Source: Fimbriimonadaceae bacterium (GTDB lineage: Bacteria > Armatimonadota > Fimbriimonadia > Fimbriimonadales > Fimbriimonadaceae). From it: 64,000 nucleotides of DNA. The stretch's first letter is position 1. Every line of letters starts with the position of its first letter. The notes under the pieces were generated by a model that saw only the letters and a program-made list of their open reading frames with translations, ran no database searches and was not told the origin of the DNA. Below, piece after piece: positions 25,787 through 49,138 of this stretch. The position numbers were made by a program, and so were the translations under genes. The DNA lies in the NCBI GenBank assembly GCA_019638775.1, contig JAHBTD010000005.1, positions 3,345 through 67,344 on the forward strand, in the 5' to 3' direction.

Positions 25787-26686
25787 CTAAACCTCCTCCG
25801 GCATGAGTTCGGCTTCGTCGAGGACGATCATCGTGCCGCAGCCTTCGTTGGTGAAGACTTCGGTCAGGAGACTGTCAGGCGTCTTGTAGGAGATGACATG
25901 GACGCGGGTGACGGTGCCGTTGAGGGCGTCGGCGATGCAGGCGGCTTTGGGCATCATCCCGTCCTTGAGCGTGCCGTCTTTCTCCAGCTCCTGCAGCTGG
26001 GCGAGCTCAAGATGAGAGATGAGAGTCGTGGGGTCGCCTGGGTCGGTGCAGATGCCAGGAGCCCCGGTGACGAGGATCAGCTTGGCGGCTCCGATGGCGT
26101 TGGCGATGGCGGCGGCGACGGAGTCGGCGTTGATGTTGAGCAGCTGTCCGTCGGCGTCGGCGCTGAGGGGGCTGACCATCGGGAGATAGCCGCTGTCGAG
26201 GAGGTCGTCGAGCACCTTGGGGTCGATCTTGACGATGTCGCCGACGAAGCCGAAGTCGACGGTTTCGCCGTCTTTCGTCTTTCGCGGAGGGCGTTTGGCG
26301 GCGTGGACCAGGCCGGAATCCACCCCGCTAAGGCCGATGACGGGCATGTCCAGTTCGCGGCCTGCGGATAAGAGGGTTGCTCGGGCCGCGCCGAAGAGGG
26401 CGAGCGTCATGGCCTCCAGCATTCCGGCGTCGGTGATGCGGCGGCCTTCGTGGAAGACGGACTGCGCGCCGAGGCGGTCGGCAAGGGCGGTGGCCTGCGG
26501 CCCGCCGCCGTGCACGAGGACGACCTGGATGCCGAGTCGGTGGAGGACGGAGACCTGCTCCAGCAGGGCCTTGGCGTCGGCTTGAGTTTGGATGGCTTCT
26601 CCGCCGACCTTGACGACAAACCGCTGGCCTTGGTAGAGGCGCAGGTAGGGGAGGGCTCTTCTGAGGGCCTCGACGGAACTATGCAT
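25787..26686 (-). CDS. argB: Acetylglutamate kinase
   Basis: RFVVKVGGEAI...VLVHGGGPQ amino-acid-kinase signature. GGAGA SD with a 6-nt spacer. 8-nt overlap with the argF' stop. Confidence 0.9.
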   Translation of the reverse strand: MHSSVEALRRALPYLRLYQGQRFVVKVGGEAIQTQADAKALLEQVSVLHRLGIQVVLVHGGGPQATALADRLGAQSVFHEGRRITDAGMLEAMTLALFGAARATLLSAGRELDMPVIGLSGVDSGLVHAAKRPPRKTKDGETVDFGFVGDIVKIDPKVLDDLLDSGYLPMVSPLSADADGQLLNINADSVAAAIANAIGAAKLILVTGAPGICTDPGDPTTLISHLELAQLQELEKDGTLKDGMMPKAACIADALNGTVTRVHVISYKTPDSLLTEVFTNEGCGTMIVLDEAELMPEEV

Positions 26687-27680
26687 TGGGGTTCTCCATA
26701 AGCTTCATCATCACGGCCTTTTGCACGTGGAGGCGGTTGGCGGCTTCTTGCACCACCACGCTGCGCGGGCCGTCCAAAATCTCATCCGAAATCTCTACGT
26801 TGCGGCGAACGGGAAGGCAGTGCATCGCCTTGGCATCGCGCTGGGCGTTGGCAAACCAGGACTCTTTCAGACACCAATCGCGCAAGCTTGCGCGGGCTTC
26901 GGCCTCCTCGCTTGGCCTGCCGTAAAACTCTGGCGCGGCCCACGACTTCGCATAGACGATATGGGCTCCTTCGGTGGCTTCTTCGCGGTGGTGGGTGACC
27001 TTGAGGCGGTCGCCTCCGATCTGCCTCAGCTCGGAGATCGAACGGTCGGGCAGACCGAAGCCCTCGGGGTACACGACGGTCAGCTCCATGCCGCGAAGGA
27101 GGGCCATCGAGGCGACGCAGAGGGGGACGGCGTAGGGCAGCGGTCGGGGGTGCCATGCCCAGGAGAGTACGAACTTGCCGCCTTCTTTGGGGACTTTCAG
27201 ATCGTTCAGGAGCTTCCAATCGGCGAGGGCTTGGCAGGGGTGGTCGGCAGCCGACTCCATGTTGATGAACGGCTTGGGACAAAGCTTGGCCATCTTGGGC
27301 ATGAGAGCGTCGTCAAGGTCGGTGTCGAGGTCCTTGCCTTCGGCAAAGCATCGGATGCCTAGGAGGTCGCAGTATTGGGCCAGCACGGGGATGGCCTCGC
27401 GGATGTGCTCTTGGGCGCTGCCATCCATCACGACTCCGTCTCTGGTTTCGAGATTCCAAGAGCCCGCTCCTGGCTGGATGACGACGCTGCTGCCGCCGAG
27501 CTGCGACGCGCCAGCCTGGAAGGAGGCGAGCGTGCGCAGGGAGGGGTTCATGAAGAGGAGGCCGACAACCTTGTTCTTGAGGCTGTCGTTGATCGGCTCC
27601 CTTACGAGATGCTGGGCCAGCCGGACGAGGTCTTCGATCTCGTCGAAGCTCAGGCTTTTGAGGGAGAGGTATCGGTTCAT
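26679..27680 (-). CDS. argF': N-acyl(acetyl/succinyl)-ornithine carbamoyltransferase type ArgF'
   Basis: MNRYLSLKS... with NPSLRT (not the STRTR of classical OTC), MESAADHPCQ and HCLPVRRN. The track ORF 26679-28265 carries a spurious 195-codon N-extension antisense-free over argC. Confidence 0.8.
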   Translation of the reverse strand: MNRYLSLKSLSFDEIEDLVRLAQHLVREPINDSLKNKVVGLLFMNPSLRTLASFQAGASQLGGSSVVIQPGAGSWNLETRDGVVMDGSAQEHIREAIPVLAQYCDLLGIRCFAEGKDLDTDLDDALMPKMAKLCPKPFINMESAADHPCQALADWKLLNDLKVPKEGGKFVLSWAWHPRPLPYAVPLCVASMALLRGMELTVVYPEGFGLPDRSISELRQIGGDRLKVTHHREEATEGAHIVYAKSWAAPEFYGRPSEEAEARASLRDWCLKESWFANAQRDAKAMHCLPVRRNVEISDEILDGPRSVVVQEAANRLHVQKAVMMKLMENPNA

Positions 27681-27682
27681 CG

Positions 27683-28738
27683 CTATGTCCACCCCACGGC
27701 GGCCTGCATCAGACCGGCAGTCTCGTCGAAGCCGAAGATTCGGTTCATCCACTGGATACCGCCCCCGGCTGCGCCCTTGATGAGGTTGTCGATGACGCAG
27801 ACGACGGCGACCTGCGTTCCTTGGGCGGCGATGCCGATGTGCGCCCGGTTCGACCCGGCGACGTGCTTGACCGACGGCATGCTTGCCGAGACCGAGATGA
27901 ACGGACAGTCGGCATAGAAAGCCGTATAGCTCTCGATCAATTCTTCGGTCGTCGCAGCCGATTGGGTTTCCGCATAGACGGTGGCATGGATGCCGCGGGC
28001 GAACGGTCCGGAGTGGGGAAGGAAAACGAGCTTCGGCTCGCCTTCCGGCCTGAGCCGACCGAGGAACATCTTCATCTCGGGCGTGTGCCGATGCTTCAGA
28101 AGCTCGTAAGCCCACATGCCGCTGTGGCGATCGGGGTGGTGGGTGCCGGATTTGGGCGTGCGACCGCTGCCTGTGCTTCCGGTGACGCCGTTTACGACAA
28201 AGCTCGATGCCAGCCCAAGGGCGGCAAGCGGGGCGCAGGCCAGGGTCGCGGCGGTGGTAAAGCACCCAGGCTGGACAGCGTGCTTCGGCACGGGGGCTTT
28301 GTGCAGCTCGGGGATGGCGCAGGTGAATTCAGAGAGGAGTTCGGGGGTGGGATGCGATATTCCGTAGATCTCTTCAAACTGCTTCGCGTCGGCGTAGCGG
28401 AAGTCTGCTGAAAGATCCACGACCTTCATTCCGGCAGGGCCGCTTTCGATCCACTGTTTCAGGATTGGGGCGGCTTCGCCGTGGGGAAGCGCGGAGAAGA
28501 GGGCGACCTGATCTTGCTTTGCCGCATCGGCGAGACTGTTGTCGTTTGTATCGAAGGCCAAGCTTTTTGACACCCCGGCAAGGTGGGGGAAGATGTCGCC
28601 CACTTGCTGCCCCGCTGCGCTCTGCGACACGACGCTGGTCAGCTCGAAGTGGGGGTGAGCGAGCAGCAGGCGAATCAGCTCGCCCGCAACGTATCCGGTG
28701 CCGCCGAGCACAATAGCGGGAATCTTTTCAGACGGCAT
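27683..28738 (-). CDS. argC: N-acetyl-gamma-glutamyl-phosphate reductase
   Basis: IVLGGTGYVAGELIRLL Rossmann start. Active-site region QPGCFTTA. 351 aa. Confidence 0.9.
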   Translation of the reverse strand: MPSEKIPAIVLGGTGYVAGELIRLLLAHPHFELTSVVSQSAAGQQVGDIFPHLAGVSKSLAFDTNDNSLADAAKQDQVALFSALPHGEAAPILKQWIESGPAGMKVVDLSADFRYADAKQFEEIYGISHPTPELLSEFTCAIPELHKAPVPKHAVQPGCFTTAATLACAPLAALGLASSFVVNGVTGSTGSGRTPKSGTHHPDRHSGMWAYELLKHRHTPEMKMFLGRLRPEGEPKLVFLPHSGPFARGIHATVYAETQSAATTEELIESYTAFYADCPFISVSASMPSVKHVAGSNRAHIGIAAQGTQVAVVCVIDNLIKGAAGGGIQWMNRIFGFDETAGLMQAAVGWT

Positions 28739-33128: not shown

Positions 33129-34001
33129 CTACAGCTTTCGCGAGAGTTGGTCTCGCTGCCCGTGCAAGAGGGCCGAACCATCTTCATAAAGGCTCAGAAC
33201 GCCGTATCCATTGTTAGCCTGTCCAGTTCCCTCCACCACCGCACGGAGCGTCACATAATGCGTTTCGGCGAGCTTGACGTAGGCGTTTTCGTGGGTGTGA
33301 CCTTGGAGCACAATGCGGACGTTCTTGGCATCGTCGATGGCTTGGCGGACCTTCGCAGCGGAGGCAACGCCCGTAGAAGGTCGCGAGGCACCTGTCCAGT
33401 CGATCCGCTGATGGACGCAGACGAGCACATGCTTCTTGGTGTTTGAGAGCTCTTGCCTCAGCCAGTCGATCTGCCAATCGGGAATGCTGGTGTCGGTCCA
33501 CACGAAGTTTCCGGCATCGTAGGGGGTGCCGTCGGCTTTGTGGCAAGCGTCGAGGATGATCGCTTTCCAGTGGTCGAGTTCCAGCGTCGTGTGCCCGGTC
33601 TTCTGTCCGACGGCTTGCAGGAAGTCTGCTCGCTTGACCTTGGCGAGGCAGTGGTTGCCGAGCGTGAATCTCTGCACGGGCGACATCTGGCTAATCTCCC
33701 CAAGAGCCGCCTTCAGAAATCGCATTTCGTCTTCGGCTGTCGCCTGGTCGGCGGAGTCGATGAGGTCACCCAGCTCGATGAGAGCGTCGATCTTTTCGGT
33801 CTGGAAGTGCTGTCGCGCCTCTTCGATTTTCGGGAGAGACTCTCGGTAGAAGCGGGTGCCCCGGGCGGGGGCGTCGGCGTAATGGATGTCGGTGAGGAGG
33901 CCGATCCTTTGGGGCGCGACGGGCAACCAGGAGGCGGCCTTGGACCAGGGGGCGAGGAGCAGGGCTCCGCTGGATATTAGGAGATCGCGTCGGGTTAGCA
34001 T
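33129..34001 (-). CDS. Tat-signal metallophosphoesterase
   Basis: MLTRRDLLISSGALLLA twin-arginine leader. Metallophosphoesterase motifs DIHY, GDLID, GNH and GHTHEN. Confidence 0.8.
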   Translation of the reverse strand: MLTRRDLLISSGALLLAPWSKAASWLPVAPQRIGLLTDIHYADAPARGTRFYRESLPKIEEARQHFQTEKIDALIELGDLIDSADQATAEDEMRFLKAALGEISQMSPVQRFTLGNHCLAKVKRADFLQAVGQKTGHTTLELDHWKAIILDACHKADGTPYDAGNFVWTDTSIPDWQIDWLRQELSNTKKHVLVCVHQRIDWTGASRPSTGVASAAKVRQAIDDAKNVRIVLQGHTHENAYVKLAETHYVTLRAVVEGTGQANNGYGVLSLYEDGSALLHGQRDQLSRKL

Positions 34002-37364: not shown

Positions 37365-38327
37365 TTACTGCTGTTGCTGTTGAGTTTGGGTTCGGGCCTG
37401 ATCGTCGATCATCTGTGGGGCGCGAGATGGGATCTTGGCAAACACAGGAAGGTCCAAGCTGCCAAAGGAGTTTCGTAGCTCATTCACTGCCATCCTCTCC
37501 GTGATCGACGTGCGCACAGACGCCGTTAGAACTTCCGTTGCACTGCCTCGATAAACGCCCTTGTTTGGGGGCACGTCGTCGTAGTTCCGTCCGTGGGCGA
37601 CCACGACGTATCGCTCGTCAGGGACGCATTGGTTCGTCGGATCGTAGGGCATCCATTCGCCGGTGGGCGTTAAAAACTCAACCCAGGCGTGGCTTTCGGA
37701 GGCGACCTCTCCCTCACGGAAGACGTGCAGATAGCCGTTTACATACCGCGCCGGAACGCCCTTCAGGCGGAGTAAGCCGATCATGATTTGGGCGATGTCT
37801 TGGCAGACACCCGCCTTATGCTTTAGGGCATCTTCAACGGTAGAGTTGTACTGGGTGACCACGGGGTTGTAGGTGATCTCATTTTCGATCAGGTGGGCAA
37901 TCTCCTCGGCGATCTTGCCCACAGGCTCGCCACTCTTGCTTTTGAGCTTCGATGAGAATTTGAGCAAGCTCGGCGAATCTTTGATGGGCCCGCCAAACAG
38001 CAAGAAGTCTTTTTCGGTTGTAAAGCCTTCGGTATGGAGCGGCTCGGTCGGCAGATCTTCGAGGTTGCAAGCAGCGGGCTGGGTTTCTACAATAGAGCGG
38101 GCAAGAACCTCAATCTCCTTGTGGTACTTGGGGATGCCGAAATGGTGGACGGTGTTGCCCAGCCAGTCGGTGAAGGTATGGACCTTCGTGGGCGGTCCAA
38201 CAGCCAGAAAAAAGCTACGCACGATCTGCTGACGTGTGCTTTTGGGTTCAATCCAAAACTCCATCCACGATTCGCTGATGAAATCGGAATACTTAAACTG
38301 GATACGGTGTTCTATTTCGAGGGTCAT
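37365..38327 (-). CDS. Transglutaminase-like cysteine peptidase family protein (with Bact_transglu_N)
   Basis: N-terminus MTLEIEHRIQFKYS... Catalytic triad context GVCQD, SHAWVEF and YDPTN. Confidence 0.85.
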   Translation of the reverse strand: MTLEIEHRIQFKYSDFISESWMEFWIEPKSTRQQIVRSFFLAVGPPTKVHTFTDWLGNTVHHFGIPKYHKEIEVLARSIVETQPAACNLEDLPTEPLHTEGFTTEKDFLLFGGPIKDSPSLLKFSSKLKSKSGEPVGKIAEEIAHLIENEITYNPVVTQYNSTVEDALKHKAGVCQDIAQIMIGLLRLKGVPARYVNGYLHVFREGEVASESHAWVEFLTPTGEWMPYDPTNQCVPDERYVVVAHGRNYDDVPPNKGVYRGSATEVLTASVRTSITERMAVNELRNSFGSLDLPVFAKIPSRAPQMIDDQARTQTQQQQQ

Positions 38328-38333
38328 CTCGGC

Positions 38334-39296
38334 TTATAACTCCTGGTCGGGGCTTGTCATGGCCTCGTGCACTCGTGTAAGCGTATCGAGGGAATCGTTA
38401 ATAAATTGAGTGATGTCCTTACGGTCGAGAATCTCTTCTTGATCGTATTCGAGCGTCGCCGCGAGCTTTCCGATTTCGCGCGTTGCGGACTTTACTCCTG
38501 GTCCGTGTGGCGGCAATTGTTTGAGGTAGCCAAGCATTCGCCGCACGCCGCAGTTGACGGTTCTCGGTGCGCCAGGATGAAAGACGAAGAACTCCAAGAC
38601 ATTGCGTCGCTCAAATCGCGGACCGTACATCTGGCGGTAGTTTTCCAGCGATGCGAGGTTCGACAGCAGACTACGCCACCCGGCAAAGTGAAGCGGTGAG
38701 GCGGTGTCTTCGGAGGGGACTTCCAAGCTTGGGAGTCTTGCGCCAAGGACGATGAGCGTTCGTTGGGTGCGCTCCATCGCTTCGCCGAATTTGTGATAAC
38801 ACCAGCCTTGGTCGCGGGTGAGCGTATGTTCAATCGCGCCTAGCGTTGTGAGCAAATCCCGTTGGCAAGCCGCGACCGCTTCCAGGGCGTGGCCTTCATC
38901 CCGGTACTTCCTCCCCCCAGGACGCTGCAGCCCTCGGTAAGCGTGGTTCAGGTTGTAGATCACCTCGCGCGTCATGGTTTCGGAGACGGCACGGGCGTTT
39001 TCTCGGGCCTTGGCGACGCTTGAAATCACCGACACCGGGTTCTCAGTGTCGAGCAAAAAATAGTTCAAGTAGCGCAGGCAAACGTCGGACTTCGGAGTTG
39101 TCTTGATGTTGTGCCCTTCGGGAACAGGGAAGCAGTGGGTAAGGAAATTCCACTCTTCATTCGCCCGATCATTGTCTAGTCCGGAAAGTTCAATGTAGAA
39201 CTCACTGGCCACTTTGAGCTGGCGCCCGCTGTTTTCGGCCCGCTCTAGAAAGCGGCCCATCCAATAGAGATTGTGTGCAACGCGTGACAGCAGCAT
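38334..39296 (-). CDS. Alpha-E domain protein (DUF403)
   Basis: MLLSRVAHNLYWMGRFLERAEN... is the alpha-E N-terminal signature. 1-nt gap to the upstream ATP-grasp gene. Confidence 0.85.
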   Translation of the reverse strand: MLLSRVAHNLYWMGRFLERAENSGRQLKVASEFYIELSGLDNDRANEEWNFLTHCFPVPEGHNIKTTPKSDVCLRYLNYFLLDTENPVSVISSVAKARENARAVSETMTREVIYNLNHAYRGLQRPGGRKYRDEGHALEAVAACQRDLLTTLGAIEHTLTRDQGWCYHKFGEAMERTQRTLIVLGARLPSLEVPSEDTASPLHFAGWRSLLSNLASLENYRQMYGPRFERRNVLEFFVFHPGAPRTVNCGVRRMLGYLKQLPPHGPGVKSATREIGKLAATLEYDQEEILDRKDITQFINDSLDTLTRVHEAMTSPDQEL

Positions 39297-39297
39297 A

Positions 39298-40731
39298 TTA
39301 GGCTTGTTCTCCTATCACCCAAGTGTCTTTGCTTCCCCCACCTTGACTGGAGTTGACGACGTAAGAGCCCTCGCGCAGAGCGACTCTGGTGAGTCCTCCG
39401 GGCAAGACGCGGATTCGATCCCCATAGACCACAAACGGCCTGAGGTCGACCCGTCGAGCTTTATACTCCCCATCGAGGTAGGTTGGGTGAGCGGAGAGCT
39501 GAATAAGCGGCTGGGCAATGTAGTGGTCTGGATCGTCCTTGATCTTCTTTGCGAATTCCTCGCGCTCAGCTTGGGTTGCCATCGGCCCCATGAGCATTCC
39601 GTAGCCGCCCGCTCCGTCGGTCATCTTGACGACGAGCTTGTCAAGGTTCTCAAGCATGTATTTGCAGTCCTCAGCGAGGAAGCCTTTGTACGTTGGAATC
39701 TGCTCGATGATGGGCTCTTCATCCAGGTAGTAACGGATGACGTCGGGAATGAACGGATAAACGGCCTTATCGTCGGCGACTCCGGCTCCCGGTGCATTAA
39801 CAATTGCGACGTTGCCTTCGCGGTAAGCATTGATCAATCCTGCGACGCCGAGGATCGAATCGCGTCGAAACACGAGCGGGTCGAGATAAGGATCATCGAG
39901 TCGGCGATAGACGACATCAACCTGTCGGCGGCCTTCGGTCGTACGAACGTAAACGTGGTTTTCTTCGACGACGAGGTCGGAGCCTTCCACGAGCAGCGCG
40001 CCCATTTCCCTGGCGAGGAAGCTGTGTTCGTAGAATGCCGAGTTGGCGCGTCCGGGGGTGAGCACGACGACTAAGCCACGCATCGAGTTTCGCGGCGAAA
40101 CGAACTGAAGGCAGTCCAACAGCATGTCCGGATAGTTTCGGACGGGCGCTACCGAGTATTTCGAGAAAAGCTCGGGAAATGTGCGTTGAAGAATATTTCG
40201 GTTCTCGACGACGTAGGAGACTCCGCTGGGACAGCGACAGTTATCCTCAAGCACAAGGAACTCACCTTGCTCGCCACGGATGAGGTCGGTTCCTACGATG
40301 TGAGTAAAGACATCGTGGGGAGGTGTAATACCCAAAAGCTCACGACGATATTCGGAACGCGAGAATATAAGATCCCACGGTACGACCTTATCGTGCAGAA
40401 TCTGCTGCTTCGAGTAGATGTCCTTTAGAAAAAGGTTAAGGGCTGTGACTCGTTGGATGAGTCCAGCTTCAACCGTTTCCCATTCTTTGGACGTAATGAC
40501 GCGCGGCACGAAGTCAAAGGGGAAGATTTTCTCTTCCCCGTCTTCTTCGCCGTATACGTTAAAAGTGATGCCTTGATTCCGAAGCGAAACATCTTGTAGC
40601 TGCCCCCTTTGGCGTATCTGCTTAGTTGTTAATTTCCCGAGAGCGCTGGTGATCGGAGCGTAATGCGGTCTGGGGACGCCGTTGGAATCGAAGGACTCGT
40701 CAAATCCAGTGAGCTTAGTAGTCCATTCCAT
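39298..40731 (-). CDS. Circularly permuted type-2 ATP-grasp protein (DUF404/DUF407)
   Basis: 477 aa. N-terminal ...VPRPHYAPI...LRNQGITFNVYG... pattern typical of CP_ATPgrasp_2. First gene of the triad. Confidence 0.85.
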   Translation of the reverse strand: MEWTTKLTGFDESFDSNGVPRPHYAPITSALGKLTTKQIRQRGQLQDVSLRNQGITFNVYGEEDGEEKIFPFDFVPRVITSKEWETVEAGLIQRVTALNLFLKDIYSKQQILHDKVVPWDLIFSRSEYRRELLGITPPHDVFTHIVGTDLIRGEQGEFLVLEDNCRCPSGVSYVVENRNILQRTFPELFSKYSVAPVRNYPDMLLDCLQFVSPRNSMRGLVVVLTPGRANSAFYEHSFLAREMGALLVEGSDLVVEENHVYVRTTEGRRQVDVVYRRLDDPYLDPLVFRRDSILGVAGLINAYREGNVAIVNAPGAGVADDKAVYPFIPDVIRYYLDEEPIIEQIPTYKGFLAEDCKYMLENLDKLVVKMTDGAGGYGMLMGPMATQAEREEFAKKIKDDPDHYIAQPLIQLSAHPTYLDGEYKARRVDLRPFVVYGDRIRVLPGGLTRVALREGSYVVNSSQGGGSKDTWVIGEQA

Positions 40732-41007
40732 AAATGTTTTGTGGTGTCCTTAATTATAGCAGATTTAAGCAACTCTTTGCCAGGAGTGAACTTGCGTTAG
40801 GTTCGCGGATGCGGTCCTTTGTGCTCATGTTTTTCGCCGACTGTTGGCTCTCGTGACAGGGAGTTGGCGGGGTGTTCGTCTCATCTTTGAGGGGGTGAGT
40901 TTTGTAGGGTTGATTGGAAGATTTGGAGTGGCGAACATCCGCCGCGTTTGAAAGCGCGAATATATTCTCGCACTCCCATAGATTTCAGCGTTACAATACG
41001 TTCAACA

Positions 41008-42465
41008 ATGAAAACAGTTCGCGAGAAGGTGGCACACCTCTGTCGTCGATTTGGACTTGGTGCGACAATCGCTGATCTTGACCGCTACGAGAAAATGGGT
41101 CTTGACGCGACGATCCGCGATCTCCTCGACTTTAGCAAGCCTGATCCTGCCTATCCGGTTCATGCCTCTGAGTTCTTTTATCAGAAGGACGGCCAAGTCC
41201 AAACCCAGCCAAATCGGGTGACCGCTTGGTGGTTGACGAGGATGGCGCTGACGGACCGACCATCGCGCGATAAGCTGCTCATCTTTTTGCACGATCATTT
41301 CGCGATCAGCGCGTCGAAAATCGAGAGCGGTCCCGTGATGCTCGATCACGTAAGGATGCTTGAGAAAAACATGACGCAGCCGTTTGCGACGCTGCTCGAA
41401 GAGGTCTCGACCGATCCAGGAATGTTGATTTGGCTGGACCTGCGGCTAAGTATAAAAGGTGCGCCAAATGAGAACTTCGCGCGCGAACTGCTAGAGCTGT
41501 TTACGCTTGGAATTGGAAATTACACCGAGAAAGATATTCAGGAAGCAGCAAAGGCTTTGACCGGTTGGGGGTTGAGAAACATTACGGCAGAGCGCGGGCG
41601 CGACGCTCAGCGTGAGGCGTTTAACGATTGGGTCATGAAGGGAACCCCCTTGGTTGCCGCATGTTTTAGCCCCGCACTTTCTGACGAGGGGCCTCACGAA
41701 TTGCTGGGCCAGAGAAAGCGATTCGATCTGTCTTCGACTTGCGATTTCCTCGCGAAGCACCCGACAACTGCCACTTATCTCTGCACAAAGCTCTGGGAGT
41801 ATTACGCTTATCCGCAGCCTGAGAAGAAGGTCGTTGAGCGTCTTGCGAAGGCATGGGTGAAGAGCGAGGGTCGCATCCCCGCAGTGATGCTCGAAATGAC
41901 CAAGATGGATGAGTTTTGGAGCGAGAAGGCCGAGCGAACGATTATCAAGAGTCCGATCGACTATGTCATTCCTGTGGTTCGGCAGGTCATCGATCCTAAG
42001 GCAGTGCTGGCAGATCGCCCTACCGATGCAACGGCTACGACACCCGCGTCTCCCACTATGCTCAACCTTGCGAACACATTGGTTTATCTTTGCAATAAGC
42101 TGGGCATGGCTCCGCTGTATCCGCCAGATGTCGCCGGTTGGAACTGGGGCACGGCTTGGCTCAGCACCTCTACCGTTCTTGACCGGATTAACATGGCCAA
42201 CATTTTTGGTGGCCGGGCAAAGTCTGTGGCCCAGCGTCTTCAGCTAACGGCTCAAGCGAGGGGTGTCTCGGGGGATGAAGGCCTGATACGGCTGCTGGCA
42301 GAAACTTTGGATGTGCCGCTGAGCCCTGAGGATGCGGCTGTCTTGATCGAGATTGCGCAGAAGAACGGGTTAGCTAGGGGTATCGCCAACACCGATGCGA
42401 CTGCCCGGGCGATGCTTCCCATCTTGCGCACCGTCTTTGCGATGCCAGCCTTCCAGATGTGCTAA
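41008..42465 (+). CDS. DUF1800 domain protein
   Basis: FLHDHFAIS and LELFTLGIGNYTEKDIQEAAKALTGWG motifs. ATG 41008 lies inside track ORF 40948-42465. Confidence 0.8.
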   Translation: MKTVREKVAHLCRRFGLGATIADLDRYEKMGLDATIRDLLDFSKPDPAYPVHASEFFYQKDGQVQTQPNRVTAWWLTRMALTDRPSRDKLLIFLHDHFAISASKIESGPVMLDHVRMLEKNMTQPFATLLEEVSTDPGMLIWLDLRLSIKGAPNENFARELLELFTLGIGNYTEKDIQEAAKALTGWGLRNITAERGRDAQREAFNDWVMKGTPLVAACFSPALSDEGPHELLGQRKRFDLSSTCDFLAKHPTTATYLCTKLWEYYAYPQPEKKVVERLAKAWVKSEGRIPAVMLEMTKMDEFWSEKAERTIIKSPIDYVIPVVRQVIDPKAVLADRPTDATATTPASPTMLNLANTLVYLCNKLGMAPLYPPDVAGWNWGTAWLSTSTVLDRINMANIFGGRAKSVAQRLQLTAQARGVSGDEGLIRLLAETLDVPLSPEDAAVLIEIAQKNGLARGIANTDATARAMLPILRTVFAMPAFQMC

Positions 42466-42773: not shown

Positions 42774-43637
42774 ATGTTGTTTAAGGTACGCGTACGTGCA
42801 TTTGCTTTGGCGCTTGTGGGCATCGCCTCTCTTGCAACCCCGAGGCTAGCCGCTTCCCAGGTCTCTAACGGAAGCTTTGAGGTTGGGGGCGGGAGTTTTT
42901 CGAGTTGGGGCACGATAGGGAATGCACAGATTCAAGGAAACTCGCTTGGCTCTGGTCCGACGGATGGCCTGTGGCAAGCTCTGCTTGCAACGGCAACCGA
43001 CGGCACGGTCAACTCCAATGTAGTCCCTGGAATTGGCGTAGGGCCAGGGGCGCTTGAACCGTTTCTGGGAGTCAATGCGGGAACGCTTTTGGGGGTCGGG
43101 AACGGGACACCCCTGCTTGGGTCAGGAATGACGCAGACCATCGGAATGATCGGCGGGCAGAGCCTTTTCTTCGATTGGAATTTCCTGACGAACCAGACCT
43201 TCAACGATGGAACCAACAACTCCATCGCGCCGAGCACTGTCAACAACGACTTCGCATTTATGACGATTCTTCCCGTCGGGGATCCTGGATCGGCGCAAAT
43301 CTTCGTTCTTGCTGACACCTTCTTCGGCTATGTGAACAATCCGGGCGCGCCCGGCGGGTTTGAGACTGGATTCACGATCACGGCGGCGACCAACCCGTTC
43401 ATCTCCGAAACCGGCTTCCAGAACTTTATGTGGACGGCACAGACGAGTGGGCAGTATCTACTCGGGATCGGAGTTGTTCATGTCACAACCGGGCCGGACA
43501 ACGGGGTGAACTCTGGCCTGCTCATAGACAATGTTCAGCTTGATGCCGTGCCTGAGCCATCGAGTATTGCGGCTCTGAGCTTGTTGGGTCTCGGCCTCCT
43601 GCGCAGGCGTGTGCGCAAGGTGAAGGACAAGGCATGA
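42774..43637 (+). CDS. Secreted PEP-CTERM-anchored protein (jelly-roll/lectin-like ectodomain)
   Basis: Signal peptide. N-terminal NGSFE...W motif. C-terminal VPEPSSIAALSLLGLGLLRRRVRK is a PEP-CTERM sorting signal. SD GAGGGAG precedes ATG 42774. Confidence 0.85.
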   Translation: MLFKVRVRAFALALVGIASLATPRLAASQVSNGSFEVGGGSFSSWGTIGNAQIQGNSLGSGPTDGLWQALLATATDGTVNSNVVPGIGVGPGALEPFLGVNAGTLLGVGNGTPLLGSGMTQTIGMIGGQSLFFDWNFLTNQTFNDGTNNSIAPSTVNNDFAFMTILPVGDPGSAQIFVLADTFFGYVNNPGAPGGFETGFTITAATNPFISETGFQNFMWTAQTSGQYLLGIGVVHVTTGPDNGVNSGLLIDNVQLDAVPEPSSIAALSLLGLGLLRRRVRKVKDKA

Positions 43638-43951
43638 ACGCTGACCGCCTCAGGCTGGAGACAGCCACGGCAGAGGACTTCTCATCTCTGATTGGGCAGG
43701 AGTTTGCTCTGGCGCTTGAGGAGGGTGAACAGCCAGTCGCGTCTTTGAAGCTTACGGAATCGACGGCAACCCAGTACACCTCCCCGAACGGACGGACTGG
43801 GTTTGTCCTTTGCTTCGAGGGGCCGCCTGACGTCTATTTGGAGCAGCACATCTATTGGCTCAGCAACTCTGTGACCGGTGATCTGGGCATCTTTTTGGTG
43901 CCGATCAGTGAGGATGAGAGTTGTCGGCGGTATCAGGCGGTCTTCAACTGA
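43634..43951 (+). CDS. Small cytoplasmic protein (DUF6916-like), partner of the tail-collar genes
   Basis: ATGA overlap with the PEP-CTERM gene stop. 105 aa ending ...IFLVPISEDESCRRYQAVFN. The DUF6916 assignment is from memory of the family pattern, not a search. Confidence 0.65.
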   Translation: MNADRLRLETATAEDFSSLIGQEFALALEEGEQPVASLKLTESTATQYTSPNGRTGFVLCFEGPPDVYLEQHIYWLSNSVTGDLGIFLVPISEDESCRRYQAVFN

Positions 43952-43984
43952 AGAATGACGATTTAGGATGATTGAGGGAAACTT

Positions 43985-44506
43985 ATGGCAGAACCGTTCA
44001 TTGGTGAAATCAAGCTTGTGCCCTATAACTTCGCCCCGCGAGGGTGGGCCTTCTGCAATGGGACACTGATCTCTATTGCTCAGAACACCGCGCTTTTTGC
44101 GTTGCTTGGGACGATGTATGGTGGCAACGGGCAGACGAATTTTGCCCTTCCCGACCTGCGTGGCAGGGGGGCGATCTCATCGGGGCAAGGGCCAGGCCTG
44201 AGCAACTATAGCCAAGGAGAGACCGGAGGCGCCGAGAACGTCACCTTGACGACAGCAGCAATGCCAGCTCACGGACACTCAGCACAAGCTTCGTCGGCAT
44301 TTGGCACACAGGGCGACCCGGCAGGAGCCCTTCCGGCTAAGTCACCACTTGCGCTTGGCTATGCCTATCGCTCGGGCGCAGGGGGCACGATGCCGAGTGA
44401 TGCCGTTAGCAGCGTAGGCGGAGGACAACCGCATACGAATCATCAACCCTATCTGGTTCTTAACTACGTCATTGCGATGGTGGGGATATTTCCGCCGCGT
44501 AACTGA
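43985..44506 (+). CDS. Phage tail collar domain protein (MdpB-like), paralogue 1
   Basis: MAEPFIGEIKLVPYNFAPRGWAFCNG...NFALPDLRGR...GGGQPHTNHQPYLVLNYVIAMVGIFP. No signal peptide. Confidence 0.9.
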   Translation: MAEPFIGEIKLVPYNFAPRGWAFCNGTLISIAQNTALFALLGTMYGGNGQTNFALPDLRGRGAISSGQGPGLSNYSQGETGGAENVTLTTAAMPAHGHSAQASSAFGTQGDPAGALPAKSPLALGYAYRSGAGGTMPSDAVSSVGGGQPHTNHQPYLVLNYVIAMVGIFPPRN

Positions 44507-44527
44507 TGCAAATCGAAGGAGAATTTT

Positions 44528-45040
44528 ATGGCAGATCCTTTTATTGGTGAAATCCGACCGGTACCGTACACCTTTGCTCCTCGGAACTGGGCGTTTTGCA
44601 GCGGGCAACTCCTCCCAATCAATCAGAACCAGGCGCTCTTCTCGCTGATTGGCACGACTTACGGCGGCAACGGTCAGACCAACTTCGCCCTTCCTGACCT
44701 TCGTGGACGTGTTCCGATGAGTTCGGGAACGGGTCCTGGTCTATCCTCGAAGACTTTGGGGGAGAAGGCCGGAGTGGAGACGGTGACGCTTACGGCAAAC
44801 GAGATTCCGGCGCACAACCACCCGGCGAACGTATCCGTACAGCCTGCTGATCAGTACTCGCCAGGATTGCTTTTGCCTGCGGTTTCACCTCGGCAACTTT
44901 TTGCACCAGGGCCGACGGGCGCATTTGCCCCTGGGATGATTACGAACACTGGCGGCAACCAGGCGCACAATAATCTGCAGCCCTATCTCACGATCAGCTT
45001 TGTCATCGCTTTGACAGGGATTTTCCCGCCGTTGAACTAA
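44528..45040 (+). CDS. Phage tail collar domain protein (MdpB-like), paralogue 2
   Basis: MADPFIGEIRPVPYTFAPRNWAFCSG...NFALPDLRGR...GGNQAHNNLQPYLTISFVIALTGIFP. AAGGAG SD with a 6-nt spacer. Confidence 0.9.
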   Translation: MADPFIGEIRPVPYTFAPRNWAFCSGQLLPINQNQALFSLIGTTYGGNGQTNFALPDLRGRVPMSSGTGPGLSSKTLGEKAGVETVTLTANEIPAHNHPANVSVQPADQYSPGLLLPAVSPRQLFAPGPTGAFAPGMITNTGGNQAHNNLQPYLTISFVIALTGIFPPLN

Positions 45041-45064
45041 CGATTACTTTGGAGACAGCAACTC

Positions 45065-45592
45065 ATGGCAGAACCATTTCTTGGAGAGATTCGACTGGTG
45101 GCATTCAACTTTGCGCCACAAGGCTGGGCTACGTGTTCAGGGCAACTCTTGCCGATAGCACAGAACGACGCTTTATTCGCGCTGATCGGAACGATCTATG
45201 GCGGCAACGGGCAGACCACCTTCGCCCTTCCTGATTTTCGGGGCAGGGTCGCAGTCTCTCACGGGCAAGGTCCTGGCCTGAGTAATTATCTGCTTGGGCA
45301 AGCGTCGGGTAGCGAGGGCATCACCCTCTCTACCAACCAGATACCTACGCATAACCACACGATGGCGGTGTCGAGCAATACGGCGACGACGAGCGACCCA
45401 CGAAACGGTGTCTTTGCAAAGCCGAACGTCAACCCAAGAATGCAAAATCTGTATGGCAGCCCGGCAAATGTTGCGATGGAAGGGGACACGATTGGCGCCG
45501 CGGGTGGCAGCCAGCCTCACGAGAATCGTCAGCCCTTTTTGTCCCTGCTTTACGTGATCGCCCTCCAAGGAATCTTCCCCAGCCAGAACTAA
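45065..45592 (+). CDS. Phage tail collar domain protein (MdpB-like), paralogue 3
   Basis: MAEPFLGEIRLVAFNFAPQGWATCSG...TFALPDFRGR...GGSQPHENRQPFLSLLYVIALQGIFP. Confidence 0.9.
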   Translation: MAEPFLGEIRLVAFNFAPQGWATCSGQLLPIAQNDALFALIGTIYGGNGQTTFALPDFRGRVAVSHGQGPGLSNYLLGQASGSEGITLSTNQIPTHNHTMAVSSNTATTSDPRNGVFAKPNVNPRMQNLYGSPANVAMEGDTIGAAGGSQPHENRQPFLSLLYVIALQGIFPSQN

Positions 45593-45610
45593 CGACAGTC
45601 GGAGAGACCA

Positions 45611-46252
45611 ATGCAAGACGCTAAGAAAACACAGATACCGAGAAGGGCCTTCCTGCAAGGCGCTACTGCCGCTGTTGGAACCACTTTGTTGGGGCTTGCC
45701 CCGGCCTCCTCTCTCGCTTCAGGCCTTCAAAAAGGGGGCGGACCGCTGAGTGCGCAAAGCTCTTTTTCCATCGGCTATTGGGATGGGCAGATGTTCACCC
45801 CTGCTGGTGAATTGGCCACTGGCGATGCGACGCTTGATGTCGTGAACCTTCACCTCCGTGGCTATGGACCGAACGGGACGCTTAAAGGGATTGACGCGAA
45901 TGCGCTGGTACCGATGGGCAAGAGCGTTCAGAAAGTTCCCTTTACAGCTTGGGTTGCTGGGCCGTCGGGCTGCGAGCAGGTGAGATTCAACATGACAGTT
46001 GATGGTAATCACGGGCTCGTGTTGACTGCGCGATTTTTGGCAGGCAAGCTGGAGTCTGTAACCGACTTTTCATTCATCGCTGGAAGCGGGAGTGGGCTGA
46101 AGCTTCGAGAAGGAGTCTATGTGATCGCGAACGGGTCGATGAACTGGGGTTCGTATGCTTACGACGCCAGTAACATGGAAGCGCCGCTTACCGGGCCAGC
46201 GGGTCCTGTAGCCTCCCTTCAGTACGTCGTTCTGACTGTCTCTCGAACGTGA
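45611..46252 (+). CDS. Tat-signal secreted protein, unknown function
   Basis: Twin-arginine leader IPRRAFLQGATAAVGTTLLGLAPASSLA. 213 aa with no recognisable domain. Confidence 0.7.
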   Translation: MQDAKKTQIPRRAFLQGATAAVGTTLLGLAPASSLASGLQKGGGPLSAQSSFSIGYWDGQMFTPAGELATGDATLDVVNLHLRGYGPNGTLKGIDANALVPMGKSVQKVPFTAWVAGPSGCEQVRFNMTVDGNHGLVLTARFLAGKLESVTDFSFIAGSGSGLKLREGVYVIANGSMNWGSYAYDASNMEAPLTGPAGPVASLQYVVLTVSRT

Positions 46253-46725
46253 GCGAAACCCCCCAGATCGGTTATCGGCTTGCAACGCCGGAAGAAGATT
46301 CCTTCTTCCGGCGTCTTTTCGACATCACCCGCGCCCCCGAGTTTCAGATGTCGGGAATCGTTGGTGATCCCCTGGCGCAGCTTTTAGAATCGCAGTATCA
46401 CGCACGTCAAACGCACTACGCGGCGATGTACCCTACTGCCGAATATCGGTTGATCCTTGCCGATGGGGAACTTACGGGCGGCATGATCGTGCGGGAGATG
46501 GATGAGCATCTGCATCTCATCGATATCACGTTACTTGATGAGTGTCGTGGCCGTGGAATCGGTACCCTCGTGATGCGGGAGCTTCAAGCCACCGCTGAGA
46601 GCGCGGGCAAGGGAGTGTTGCTCCATGTGGAGCATTTCAACCCAGCGCGACGCCTCTATGACAGGCTTGGCTTTGTCGAAGTCGAGGAGATTGGGCTTTA
46701 TAAACGGATGGTTTGGAAACCCTGA
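46249..46725 (+). CDS. GNAT family N-acetyltransferase
   Basis: GTGA overlap with the upstream stop. Acetyl-CoA loop CRGRGIGTLVM and NPARRLYDRLGF. Confidence 0.85.
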   Translation: MSETPQIGYRLATPEEDSFFRRLFDITRAPEFQMSGIVGDPLAQLLESQYHARQTHYAAMYPTAEYRLILADGELTGGMIVREMDEHLHLIDITLLDECRGRGIGTLVMRELQATAESAGKGVLLHVEHFNPARRLYDRLGFVEVEEIGLYKRMVWKP

Positions 46726-46754: not shown

Positions 46755-48131
46755 CTATCTTGCATACTCGCAGCCCTTAAGCAGACTATCCAGGGCCGCG
46801 CGATCAAAGAGCTTTCCTCGCTGGATTACAGCGGCGATCTTTGTCGTGTTGCGGATATCTGATAGCGGGTTGGCGTCGAGGAGGACGAGGTCGCCACGCT
46901 TTCCGGAAGCAACTGTTCCAGCCTCATTTTCAAGACCGAAGTACTTTGCGGCATTAAGGGTTGCGGTGGCAATGGCGTCCGCTGGCTTCATGCCTGCTTG
47001 GACCAGCAATTCGAGCTCGTCATGCAGGCTGAATCCGGCAAAGACATAAGGGTTGAGGCAGTCGGTTCCTGCGATGATCGGTACCTTGGACTTGATCATT
47101 TCCGAGACGAACGCCAGGGTGGCTTGATACGATTTCCTCGATCTTTCCCAGTCTTCGGCGGTTCTGGATTTGAAGCGGAAATCCTTCGTCGGGTCCCACG
47201 ACGCGGCTATGAACGGGGAGACATATTTCAGACGGGGGTCCTTGCCAAAATTCGGATCGTCAAGATAGGCAACGTTGCGGAGCACGATGAGTGTGGGGCA
47301 GTGCCACATGGGGCCGGAGGCCAAGTCTTTCAGAAGCTGTTCTTGCTTTTTGGGATCGAATGAGGAAACGACTTCTGGAGAGAGCTTGACGGCAACTTTA
47401 GATGCCTCTGACAACCCTTCTGGGCAAGCATTGGCGATCTGCTTGCGCAGGTCCTCGGCCTTCGATGAGCACTCTAAAGCAACACCCATTTCGTGCTCGC
47501 TGCTCTTTTGGCCAGCGTTCATCGCCTCAATAATCCCGACGGAGTGCGGCACGTGCCCCGCGAAGGGAATCTTCTGTTCTTTGCATTCGTCGGCGATGGC
47601 AAAGAACGATTCTCGGGAGAGCAGGCTGTAAACCTTCACGAAGTCGTAGCCAGCTTTCTTGATGTTTTGTACGGCTGTGCGAGCCTGCTCAGCAATGCCC
47701 ACAGCGATCGAGCCCGGCCAGACCGGCTTGGGTCCGTCAACGATGGGGCCGCCTAAGACCATTCGGGGTGCAGTTGTTTCGCCCTTCTCAGAGCGTTGCC
47801 TCCAGGCAAGCTGGGCCGTGTTTCCGAACATCACGCGAATGCCGGTGACACCGTTTGCGGTGAAGAGGGGCAGGGTTTTCTCGTCGGCGAGGTGGACGTG
47901 CATGTCCCACAGTCCGGGCATCAGATACTTGCCTTTGCCTTCTACGACCTCGGCATTCGCCGGGACCTTCGCGCTCTCTGACGGGCCGATGCTGATGATC
48001 TTGTCGCCCTCAACAATGACCGTTTGATCGAGGATCGCCTCCGGCTTTCCCGGCTGGATAACCGCGACGTGGCGAATAGCGATCGCTTGAGGAGGCGCGA
48101 GGAATGCGCAAGCAAGCAAGGCTGCAATCAT
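46755..48131 (-). CDS. Secreted amidohydrolase-family metal-dependent hydrolase
   Basis: ATG 48131 gives signal MIAALLACAFLAPPQAIA. GLWDMHVHL metal motif. The track ORF 46755-48392 has a spurious N-extension. Confidence 0.8.
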   Translation of the reverse strand: MIAALLACAFLAPPQAIAIRHVAVIQPGKPEAILDQTVIVEGDKIISIGPSESAKVPANAEVVEGKGKYLMPGLWDMHVHLADEKTLPLFTANGVTGIRVMFGNTAQLAWRQRSEKGETTAPRMVLGGPIVDGPKPVWPGSIAVGIAEQARTAVQNIKKAGYDFVKVYSLLSRESFFAIADECKEQKIPFAGHVPHSVGIIEAMNAGQKSSEHEMGVALECSSKAEDLRKQIANACPEGLSEASKVAVKLSPEVVSSFDPKKQEQLLKDLASGPMWHCPTLIVLRNVAYLDDPNFGKDPRLKYVSPFIAASWDPTKDFRFKSRTAEDWERSRKSYQATLAFVSEMIKSKVPIIAGTDCLNPYVFAGFSLHDELELLVQAGMKPADAIATATLNAAKYFGLENEAGTVASGKRGDLVLLDANPLSDIRNTTKIAAVIQRGKLFDRAALDSLLKGCEYAR

Positions 48132-48181
48132 AAACGTATTATGCGGGCGGAAGCGTGTGTGGGTTTCGGCATTCGCTCGAT

Positions 48182-49138
48182 TTAGGTCCTGATCAGCGGG
48201 ATGCTGCGGTCTGCGATAGAACCCGACCTTCCGATGATCGCATCCGATTCGTCGGGCGGCTCCTTTGCAAACGTGCCGCTTGTCCCTTCTATCTTGAGCA
48301 TTCCTTCTGGGGTGACCTCCATAAAGCTGTAGAGGGGTTTGGTGTAGGCGTTCATGCCGCCATACCAGAAGTAGCTCGCCGAGTTTTGGCAATAGCAGGG
48401 AATGCCTTCGTGATGTTCTAACCGGTCAACATGCAGGTGTCCGAAGATGCAGGCCGCAACTGCGCCTTTGGGGTTGTCTTTGGCGGTTTTGGTGACGATG
48501 TCGAGAACTTCGACCTGTTCGGGAGGGAGCTTGCCGTCGGCGTTAGGGAATCCGAGCGGCTGATGGGAGAGCAGGATGACGGGCTCTTTGCTGGAGCGGA
48601 GTTCTTTGGCGAGCCAGTCGAGCTGTTCGGGGTCGGCCCAGTTATGGGTGGCGTTGTCGGTGAAGTAGTTGCCGTTGGCGTAGGCGTTCAGCTTGCTGTC
48701 CTTCTTGAAGTGGTTAAGGTCCAGCACCACAAACCGGTAGCCGCCGATGAGGTGCGACCCGTAGCGGCTCTTCATCCCCCAATACTTCATAGCGGCGTCC
48801 TTGTCGCACTTGTCCATGTCGTGGTTGCCAAGAACGTGAACCTTGGGGAGATCGAGGGTGTTGAAGAGGTCGACACATTCTTTGGAATTGGGCTCGGAGT
48901 AGCAAAAGTCGCCAAGTTGGAACACGGCATCCAGCCCCTTCTGCTCTTGTCTTTGCTTCGTTGCTTGAACGAAGGTACTGAGCCGTTCCATCGCATCGGG
49001 GGCGAGGCCGTGGTGAAGGTCGGTGATGACGGCGAGTTTGACGGGCTTGATCGGGCGGGAGGCTTCCATGCGCAGTGGTATCCACCGCGTCGCGGCGACG
49101 GCGGTTGTGGCGATGAGGAAGTCGCGGCGGGTCATCAA
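48182..49138 (-). CDS. Tat-signal metallophosphoesterase (paralogue-like to 33129-34001)
   Basis: MMTRRDFLIATTAVAATRW leader. DLHH, GDF, GNHD and GHLHVD motifs. Confidence 0.8.
   Translation of the reverse strand: MMTRRDFLIATTAVAATRWIPLRMEASRPIKPVKLAVITDLHHGLAPDAMERLSTFVQATKQRQEQKGLDAVFQLGDFCYSEPNSKECVDLFNTLDLPKVHVLGNHDMDKCDKDAAMKYWGMKSRYGSHLIGGYRFVVLDLNHFKKDSKLNAYANGNYFTDNATHNWADPEQLDWLAKELRSSKEPVILLSHQPLGFPNADGKLPPEQVEVLDIVTKTAKDNPKGAVAACIFGHLHVDRLEHHEGIPCYCQNSASYFWYGGMNAYTKPLYSFMEVTPEGMLKIEGTSGTFAKEPPDESDAIIGRSGSIADRSIPLIRT

Follow-up and report, generated by a model that had tools for sequence, protein, structure and literature searches.

Several described systems resemble a seven-gene cassette located at positions 42774-46725 of a 64-kb stretch of DNA (hereafter the window, that is, the whole of the stretch analyzed) from a metagenome-assembled genome of the family Fimbriimonadaceae (Armatimonadota). 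The tips of the short and long tail fibers of phage T4 (gp12, gp37; PDB 1OCY, 1PDI, 5IV5) and of the phage fiber 8KEC share with the three tail-collar proteins of the cassette the collar domain, an HxH metal motif and a closing C-terminal strand, and a phage fiber tip corresponds to approximately one whole cassette collar protein of 170 amino acids (aa). These phage proteins are homotrimers at the end of a long shaft, form part of the virion and are released by lysis, whereas the cassette has no shaft and encodes three distinct chains in a cellular context, together with an acetyltransferase, a DUF6916 protein and partners that carry a twin-arginine translocation (Tat) signal or are surface proteins. 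The virophage DSLV2 likewise possesses three consecutive collar (PF07484) genes of similar size that fall into positional clades; their products co-purify, migrate at about 55 kDa on native polyacrylamide gels, which was interpreted as a 1:1:1 heterotrimer, and bind to the surface of Synechococcus cells (PMC12724248). In contrast to the cassette, the DSLV2 genes lie beside capsid genes, docking on the capsid has been proposed for their trimer, and the system lacks a GNAT, DUF6916, a Tat partner and a cellular surface protein; the cassette is likened to DSLV2 by gene set, not by orthology. The Rhizobium rhiABC operon encodes RhiB, a stand-alone collar protein of the 'microcystin-dependent protein' type (COG4675) that NCBI also names 'tail fiber protein', and its small operon with an exported neighbor (RhiC) is reminiscent of the cassette, but there is only a single collar gene and no GNAT. 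Membership of the cassette in the rhiABC group was rejected after comparison with the pRL10 proteins: RhiA, with a probability of 0.2% against the DUF6916 profile, and RhiC, with an E-value of 0.4 against the sixth gene of the cassette, are unrelated to these, and RhiB is 25% identical over 102 residues, in the N-terminal part. The Tat hitchhikers of Escherichia coli (PaoABC, HybOC, DmsAB) are folded, cofactor-containing hetero-oligomers encoded in one operon with one signal-bearing subunit, a layout that we propose for the cassette (PMC4273604); they are redox enzymes, whereas the cargo of the cassette would be a phage-derived binding trimer, and the Tat partner is missing at many cassette loci. 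Finally, the operons described by Iyer, Abhiman, de Souza and Aravind in 2010 combine, as the cassette does, bacterial collar domains with modifying enzymes including acetyltransferases, but they are centered on dioxygenases and sulfotransferases, and the collar triplet, DUF6916, the GNAT subfamily and the Tat and surface partners are undescribed there (PMC2938197).

No description of the cassette was found in the searchable literature. We regard it, with high confidence for both the module and the predicted heterotrimer, as a putative domesticated heterotrimeric fiber tip encoded within an undescribed, widespread five-gene core. The seven genes of the Fimbriimonadaceae locus are as follows.

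Gene 1: 42774..43637, + strand, 287 aa from ATG 42774, Sec signal and PEP-CTERM tail; variable surface-partner slot.
Gene 2: 43634..43951, + strand, DUF6916 protein, 105 aa, without signal peptide; core.
Gene 3: 43985..44506, + strand, collar paralogue A, 173 aa, without signal peptide; stand-alone tail-fiber tip (collar and head).
Gene 4: 44528..45040, + strand, collar paralogue B, 170 aa.
Gene 5: 45065..45592, + strand, collar paralogue C, 175 aa.
Gene 6: 45611..46252, + strand, Tat-signal protein, 213 aa; variable Tat-partner slot.
Gene 7: 46249..46725, + strand, GNAT N-acetyltransferase, 158 aa, without signal peptide; core.

A preliminary description of the locus had reported seven co-directional genes with short junctions, and all open reading frames (ORFs) and junctions were confirmed in the ORF list of the window: 4-nucleotide (nt) overlaps at 43637/43634 and 46252/46249, and gaps of 33, 21, 24 and 18 nt, in gene order, at the others. 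Its domain calls, namely PEP-CTERM, DUF6916, three collar proteins, the twin-arginine motif and the GNAT, also hold. Shine-Dalgarno-like motifs (GGAG/AGGA) lie upstream of genes 1-6, and gene 7 starts at a GTG that overlaps the stop of gene 6. A consensus scan found no excess of promoter- or terminator-like sites within the seven-gene unit over shuffled sequence, and a convergent amidohydrolase gene ends 30 nt past gene 7, thus closing the unit. Five of the seven proteins carry no export signal. The gene 2 product is 100% identical to a GenBank protein with the locus tag KF784_15770.

To define the conserved part of the cassette, neighborhoods were surveyed from three independent anchors: DUF6916, the GNAT and the collar. 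With DUF6916, a scan of one genome per species yielded 15 loci; counts are given over 17 loci, a forest-soil contig being included. A collar triplet was present in 12 of the 17 and a GNAT with 31-43% identity to gene 7 in 15, most of the remaining loci being cut by contig ends. The DUF6916-anchored loci belong to Armatimonadota, Acidobacteriota (Pyrinomonadaceae, Thermoanaerobaculia), Actinomycetota (Solirubrobacteraceae), Chloroflexota (Thermomicrobiales), Rhodothermales, Betaproteobacteria (Pelomonas, Comamonadaceae) and Alphaproteobacteria (Novosphingobium, Mesorhizobium). A pattern for the GNAT subfamily matched at least 561 metagenome stretches, from which 80 loci were kept, and collar and/or DUF6916 genes were found in the available flank of 78 of these. 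Eighteen of the GNAT-anchored loci had about 3 kb on both sides, and here exactly three collar genes were seen in 16 and DUF6916 in 17. The collar anchor, a tblastn search against plasmids and chromids, returned 75 records, most with three matching places; among the six isolate loci inspected, five had the GNAT and three DUF6916. The loci of Ruegeria sp. TM1040 (TM1040_RS01845-RS01875), Rhizobium bangladeshense, Aminobacter, Paenibacillus sp. 37 and Deinococcus gobiensis (DGO_RS16685-RS16715) each combine a GNAT with three collar genes and a gene for a large secreted protein; Ensifer adhaerens is another culturable carrier.

Since the same core recurs across phyla and from all three anchors, the adjacency goes far beyond chance: collar triplet, DUF6916 and GNAT form a true functional module, found in at least nine phyla beside different housekeeping genes. 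The unit consists of a five-gene core (three collars, GNAT and DUF6916), which is established with high confidence, and two variable slots. The seven-gene operon of the preliminary description was therefore right in being one conserved unit, and its complete order (PEP-CTERM, DUF6916, three collars, Tat protein, GNAT) is repeated at locus L106, but it is not a fixed set of seven. At L105 the order is alike, but the DUF6916 gene was not detected, and the full order is limited to close relatives. Similarly, the PEP-CTERM and Tat proteins are recurrent partners as kinds of protein, but the particular families of genes 1 and 6 are lineage-restricted. Genes for other enzymes lie next to some cassettes: a sulfotransferase (L106, 4281-5183), a TauD dioxygenase with a fatty-acid hydroxylase (L001, 4525-6850) and a SapC-family gene (L107, 10048-10845), which echo the operons of Iyer et al.

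The products of genes 3, 4 and 5 all match PF07484 above the gathering cutoff (E 3.6e-27, 7.2e-29 and 7.7e-28, respectively) and match PHROG tail-protein families over their full length; gene 4 has an additional weak Gp10_C match and matches T4 gp12 in the PDB. Paralogue B is 54-56% identical to paralogues A and C. An alignment of 27 collar sequences revealed an invariant HxH motif (His96/His98), an invariant His150 and a conserved C-terminal (I/V)(F/Y)P motif, with poor conservation in the middle third (approximately residues 100-145). The HxH motif aligns with LPSHQH of the solved phage long tail fiber 8kec, and the N-terminal part of the collar proteins aligns with T4 gp12. In the T4 fiber structures (gp12, gp37), a Zn or Fe ion on the three-fold axis is coordinated by these histidines.

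In a neighbor-joining tree, triplet genes from different phyla grouped by their position (first, second or third) into three clades, each marked by N- and C-terminal signatures of its own; all three paralogues have thus been retained since before the cassette spread. Moreover, collar arrays come in multiples of three (3, 6 or 9 genes). With three consecutive genes of similar size and positional clades, the cassette carries a tripartite collar set of the DSLV2 type. The positional clades, the multiples of three, the invariant histidines and the DSLV2 precedent all favor an A-B-C heterotrimer, and by this reasoning an obligate heterotrimer is, with high confidence, the most likely product. The three collar proteins would assemble 1:1:1 into an intertwined heterotrimer around a central metal held by the HxH motifs, and the poorly conserved middle third would form a ligand-binding head, most likely for a glycan or another surface ligand; we consider this arrangement probable. 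Among IMG/VR contigs, L031 (1-5456) and L033 (5255-8531) carry nine and six consecutive collar genes, respectively. At L008 (12351-13476) two of the three collar genes are split by frameshifts, giving five collar-matching ORF fragments, and at L002 (11909-12545) a gene 6 homolog is frameshifted between Tat signal and body; these frameshifts are either assembly errors of the genome bins or decaying copies.

The full-length matches to phage tail families, and the listing of some such loci as viral in IMG/VR, would fit a decayed prophage, tailocin or contractile-injection fragment, or a chance neighborhood. Pfam scans of the approximately 50 ORFs of the whole 64-kb window detected no capsid, terminase, sheath, tube, baseplate, integrase or lysis family, and a prophage or tailocin remnant was rejected on this basis, in agreement with the preliminary description. 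The ORFs of the window instead encode sugar transporters, glycoside hydrolases, enzymes of arginine biosynthesis, succinate dehydrogenase, phosphoesterases and a desaturase. Neither phage nor injection-system neighbors were seen in the annotated related loci L001, L017, L020, L105 and L106. G+C content stays level throughout the locus, a scan of viral contigs with only two peptide patterns detected no DUF6916, and a remnant is difficult to reconcile with the same core in many phyla beside unrelated housekeeping genes. In two IMG/VR 'viral' contigs, L026 (3465-4493) and L034 (2397-3758), an integrase gene precedes the cassette by a few kilobases; judged from the gene order, both cassettes may lie just outside a predicted prophage, which would make them a likely source of false-positive viral calls. 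Altogether, a phage remnant or a chance neighborhood is a very improbable explanation of the locus.

DUF6916 and the GNAT form the tightest pair in the cassette, an association that the preliminary description had not foreseen: the two genes lie no more than 150 nt apart in 57 of 66 loci and are most often convergent. Gene 2 matches PF21880 with 86.1 bits (cutoff 27; E 1.8e-24), covering positions 2-91 of 91. The DUF6916 family is large (1,739 clusters at 90% identity; 8,980 representatives at 50%, of which 5,598 have E values of 1e-10 or lower), and nearly all members are stand-alone proteins of about 100 aa. A literature search retrieved no article naming DUF6916 and none joining the tail collar domain with PEP-CTERM, and the articles retrieved for MdpB all dealt with unrelated dental chemistry. 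An AlphaFold2 model (predicted local distance difference test, pLDDT, 90) shows a small all-beta barrel, for which the Foldseek matches pointed weakly, at most, to phage head-tail adaptor or neck proteins; best values for the DUF6916 and gene 6 models were E 0.015-0.2 with TM scores of at most 0.55. Sequence searches of the PDB returned nothing for DUF6916 or gene 6, and generic GNATs only for gene 7. The gene 7 product belongs to the GNAT family (PF00583, E 7.5e-12; PF13508 and PF13673 also above their cutoffs) and has the conserved (R/Q)xxGxG-type motif, while RimI, ArsN1 and the other equivalog models all score it below their cutoffs. Its subfamily is 32-41% identical across phyla and has an N-terminal motif of its own. 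A single metagenome protein, P0210, joins a cassette-type GNAT and DUF6916 in one chain.

The collar N-terminus is unusually fixed. In 161 of 182 collar proteins the chain starts exactly six residues before a G-E-I motif, and residue 2 is Ser in 93, Ala in 52 and Gly in 18 of the 182 (163 in total, about 90%), with Asp in 12 shorter forms. On the Spirosoma oryzicola plasmid (L108) a formyltransferase-family gene (7545-8498; LQ777_RS24985) directly follows the third collar gene, a position taken by the GNAT at several other loci, L003, L007 and L017 among them; the Spirosoma locus itself has no GNAT. The next gene there encodes a 1,487-aa protein with a cellulose-binding domain. Tail-collar proteins have also been proposed as substrates of co-encoded modifying enzymes (Iyer et al. 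2010, PMC2938197). The fixed N-terminus, the small residue 2, the exchange for a formyltransferase in Spirosoma and this published proposal together suggest N-terminal acylation of the collar chains. In the model that we propose, the complex would be assembled and matured in the cytoplasm by the GNAT and DUF6916, with DUF6916 as a collar-binding adaptor and the GNAT acetylating the N-terminal Ala, Ser or Gly that is exposed on each chain by removal of Met. It is very probable that GNAT and DUF6916 serve the collar proteins in one way or another; that the collar N-terminus is the target of the GNAT is a more doubtful proposition, which we hold with rather low confidence.

The same enzyme might instead act on a small molecule or sugar, for instance an amino-sugar of a glycan that is bound by the head or decorates the surface protein, with the rest of the model unchanged. 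GNATs and formyltransferases both commonly N-acylate nucleotide-linked amino sugars, so the Spirosoma formyltransferase, which stands at a locus without GNAT, would be equally at home under a sugar substrate, as would the generic nature of the GNAT matches and the sulfotransferase and dioxygenases near some loci. Against it, no glycosyltransferase or sugar-nucleotide gene is a constant neighbor, the tightest partner of the GNAT is a small protein, and the collar N-terminus is nearly invariant in position, with Ser, Ala or Gly in 90% of cases. We regard a small-molecule or sugar substrate as unlikely, but as a serious alternative.

Gene 6 encodes the Tat-signal protein of the cassette. Its N-terminus (PRRAFLQGATAAVGTTLLGLAPASSLA) contains the PRRAFLQG motif, followed by a hydrophobic stretch, and scores at the borderline of TIGR01409 (16.3, cutoff 16.7); it thus has the arrangement of a Tat substrate, export itself being predicted. 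The RR motif is kept in all seven gene 6 homologs that include the N-terminus (P0123 being a truncated call) and in five distant relatives. No Pfam family was found for gene 6. In the structural model, residues 1-49 are disordered and residues 50-213 (pLDDT about 90) form a beta-sandwich of about 165 aa without a significant Foldseek match in the PDB or BFVD. The family is small, with 8 clusters in a word-index search in addition to the five distant relatives in cassette loci, and wherever their position was readable (L001, L002, L105, L106 and L147) homologs lie between the third collar gene and the GNAT. At other loci (L004, L005, L006, L008, L009, L011, L016, L020) the Tat-signal protein is a second DUF6916 paralogue, with signals such as MTSRRNFLKKG, MSDSRRRFLKVG and LTRRSLLRTG, and further Tat-tagged DUF6916 proteins were found among the best family members (P0130, P0172, P0188, P0248, P0270). 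P0130, from a short metagenome contig, has a Tat signal and two tandem DUF6916 domains, an architecture seen once. Since gene 6 and DUF6916 have no detectable relation, a Tat-signal partner has been recruited twice. Two calcineurin-like metallophosphoesterases elsewhere in the window (33129-34001 and 48182-49138, both on the - strand) also carry twin-arginine signals (MLTRRDLLISSG and MMTRRDFLIATT, respectively), indicating that the organism uses Tat routinely.

The Tat system exports the heterotrimer PaoABC with a signal on one subunit only (PMC4273604). An intertwined, metal-containing trimer is a cargo that Sec cannot take, and on these grounds we propose that the folded, metal-loaded collar complex may cross the membrane by piggy-backing on the Tat partner, which would be gene 6 here and a Tat-tagged DUF6916 protein at many other loci. 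This export route is tentative, and our confidence in it is limited. If true, the collar trimer would be the first non-enzyme, phage-derived Tat hitchhiker.

A different arrangement was observed in the low-GC, Bacteroidota-like contigs L029 (2099-3968) and L030 (1148-3018), in which every collar protein of the triplet has a Sec signal peptide. These signals (MKKQI...NQTQA|Q) end just before the conserved PF(I/L)GE start, pointing to a predicted extracytoplasmic location of the collar triplet in at least that lineage. Another secreted protein is encoded after the collar triplet in both contigs, and neither GNAT nor DUF6916 was seen in the short flanks of these triplets.

The first gene of the cassette occupies the surface-partner slot. 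Its mechanically predicted ORF begins at TTG 42753; ATG 42774 is the better start, since it has GAGGGAG upstream and gives a classical Sec signal (MLFKVRVRAFALALVGIASLATPRLAAS). The C-terminal tail (VPEPSSIAALSLLGLGLLRRRVRK) is laid out as VPEP-SSIAALSLLGLGLL-RRRVRK, i.e. PEP motif, membrane helix and basic cluster. The tail scores 23 bits against TIGR02595 (cutoff 16) and 18 bits against the Pfam PEP-CTERM model, below its cutoff of 20.7. With a Sec signal and a PEP-type tail, the gene 1 product has the features of an exosortase substrate; no exosortase was found in the Pfam scans of the window ORFs. Homologs with PEP-CTERM tails (31-34% identity, E 1e-27 to 1e-37) occupy the same position directly upstream in L105 and L106. 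Elsewhere the slot is filled by unrelated proteins: PEP-CTERM proteins of 230 aa (L017) and 587 aa (L162), a giant DUF4347/fn3 protein with an IPTL-CTERM tail (L034) and an adjoining choice-of-anchor D protein at the Ruegeria locus. At most loci its occupant is 900-4,000 aa long and has a signal peptide along with domains of the Ig, cadherin, Calx-beta, RTX or beta-helix type. The giant neighbors in L005, L008, L009, L013, L016 and L020 have a region of about 600 aa in common that belongs to no Pfam family (e.g. L013, residues 1185-1788), with a weak beta-helix hint in the L009 copy, and these neighbors may be a specific family rather than generic adhesins.

Once outside, the complex would act together with the co-encoded surface protein in surface recognition or adhesion. 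The recurrent surface or giant secreted neighbors, the Tat partners and the Sec-signal collar triplets favor an extracytoplasmic, surface-related role, for which our confidence is moderate, the chances being about even. Of the surface recognition or adhesion module suggested in the preliminary description, the surface-related part is thus favored, while adhesion itself, like the export of the signal-less proteins, is a prediction.

Alternatively, the collar trimer could be a secreted lectin-like bacteriocin or toxin that binds or kills other bacteria, with DUF6916 as the immunity protein in cytoplasmic and Tat-exported periplasmic forms and the GNAT adding self-protection. The occurrence of both signal-less and Tat-exported DUF6916 within one locus is a two-compartment pattern typical of immunity proteins, the collar middle third is poorly conserved, and collar paralogues of Solibacter have been reported to be under positive selection (PMC3174227). 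However, neither the cassette nor its surroundings contain a toxin domain, a lysis gene or an export system, all solved collar domains serve in binding rather than killing, and what constantly accompanies the cassette is a large protein resembling an adhesin and not a toxin, which makes a bacteriocin improbable.

The opposite possibility is that the collar trimer stays inside the cell, for example as an anti-phage decoy or sensor that detects phage parts, with the GNAT as effector and the Tat and surface proteins as passengers. Domesticated phage parts are common in defense systems, five of the seven proteins have no export signal, and about two thirds of the unbiased loci lack a Tat partner, all of which speaks for such a role. 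None of the seven proteins, however, matched any of the 5,027 PADLOC models, and a known defense system was rejected accordingly; furthermore, the neighbors are housekeeping genes rather than defense islands, collar triplets with Sec signals exist, and Tat-tagged DUF6916 and surface proteins recur too often for passengers. We consider an intracellular role to have only a slim chance of being correct.

Taken as a whole, the explanation that we favor is a chromosomal, non-viral cassette that would make a tail-fiber-tip-like binding head for use outside the cytoplasm; its chances, with all steps combined, are somewhat short of even. Gene order, conservation, co-occurrence, signals, motifs and predicted folds are observed directly; we infer the heterotrimer from the virophage analogy, and what the GNAT acetylates, how the complex is exported and what it does for the cell are likewise inferences. 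Several observations weigh against the proposal. The complex, the modification and the localization of the cassette products are all predictions. The collar copies of the window and of L001 are placed less cleanly in the positional clades than the others. About 8% of the collar proteins begin with Met-Asp or Met-Glu, where Met stays on, gene 7 gives generic matches only (the best, RimI, reaches 40.6 bits against a cutoff of 86.4), and the substrate of the GNAT could be a sugar or another protein. The P0210 fusion, considered as firm Rosetta-stone evidence for the GNAT-DUF6916 pair, was downgraded as a single sequence on a 1.2-kb contig and a possible assembly artifact. The DUF6916 model has no significant Foldseek match in the PDB or BFVD, so the adaptor role is a guess. 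An origin of gene 6 as a divergent DUF6916 was rejected (hhalign probability below 1%), and the 'same role' of the two Tat-signal proteins rests on position and signal. A Tat-signal partner is present in only 6 of the 18 unbiased full-context loci, and the loci of Ruegeria, Rhizobium, Aminobacter, Paenibacillus and Deinococcus yielded none; since it is missing from so many loci, Tat piggy-backing can be a general route of export only if the carrier gene lies elsewhere. Gln at position +1 after Sec cleavage is a general habit of Bacteroidota, and the Gln +1 of the Sec-type collar proteins was for this reason set aside as proof that a blocked N-terminus is needed.

A broader form of the proposal would have a phage receptor-binding tip domesticated across many phyla as part of a cellular organelle, in the form of an obligate heterotrimer that is matured by its private enzyme pair, travels folded as a Tat passenger and cooperates with giant or exosortase-anchored proteins in the recognition of cells or polymers; in this full form it is rather unlikely. 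Stand-alone 'tail fiber protein' or MdpB (COG4675) genes are common in soil, rhizosphere and marine bacteria, and the cassette is often mistaken for prophage debris. Its recognition as a fixed set, with three probably non-interchangeable chains, a private acetyltransferase, DUF6916 and recurrent Tat and surface partners, makes a testable system of a vague annotation, and prophage-prediction tools gain a clear class of false positives. COG4675 proteins, including single stand-alone collars, have been detected in soil metaproteomes (PMC5579227). Should the model hold, cells would have a new means of making and exporting a binding head of phage type, and Tat a new kind of passenger; in abundant, poorly studied phyla such as Armatimonadota and Acidobacteriota, the cassette would then probably help to determine how cells recognize one another or surfaces.

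Some further features of the window concern genes around the cassette. A DUF1800 gene (40948-42465, + strand) lies directly upstream, separated from gene 1 by 287 nt. DUF1800 genes are usually paired with a DUF1501 gene, and this one has no such partner. Just upstream of it, 37365-40731 (- strand) encodes a circularly permuted ATP-grasp, an alpha-E domain and a transglutaminase-like protein, a set that is a conserved predicted peptide-ligase/modification trio. The ORFs of the downstream amidohydrolase (46755-48392, - strand) and of an ornithine carbamoyltransferase (26679-28265, - strand) are extended at the N-terminus by about 100-190 aa ahead of the first match to a domain, and their true starts are probably further downstream. 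At the far end of the window (63089-64000, + strand), a gene for a KAP-family P-loop NTPase runs off the end of the sequence.

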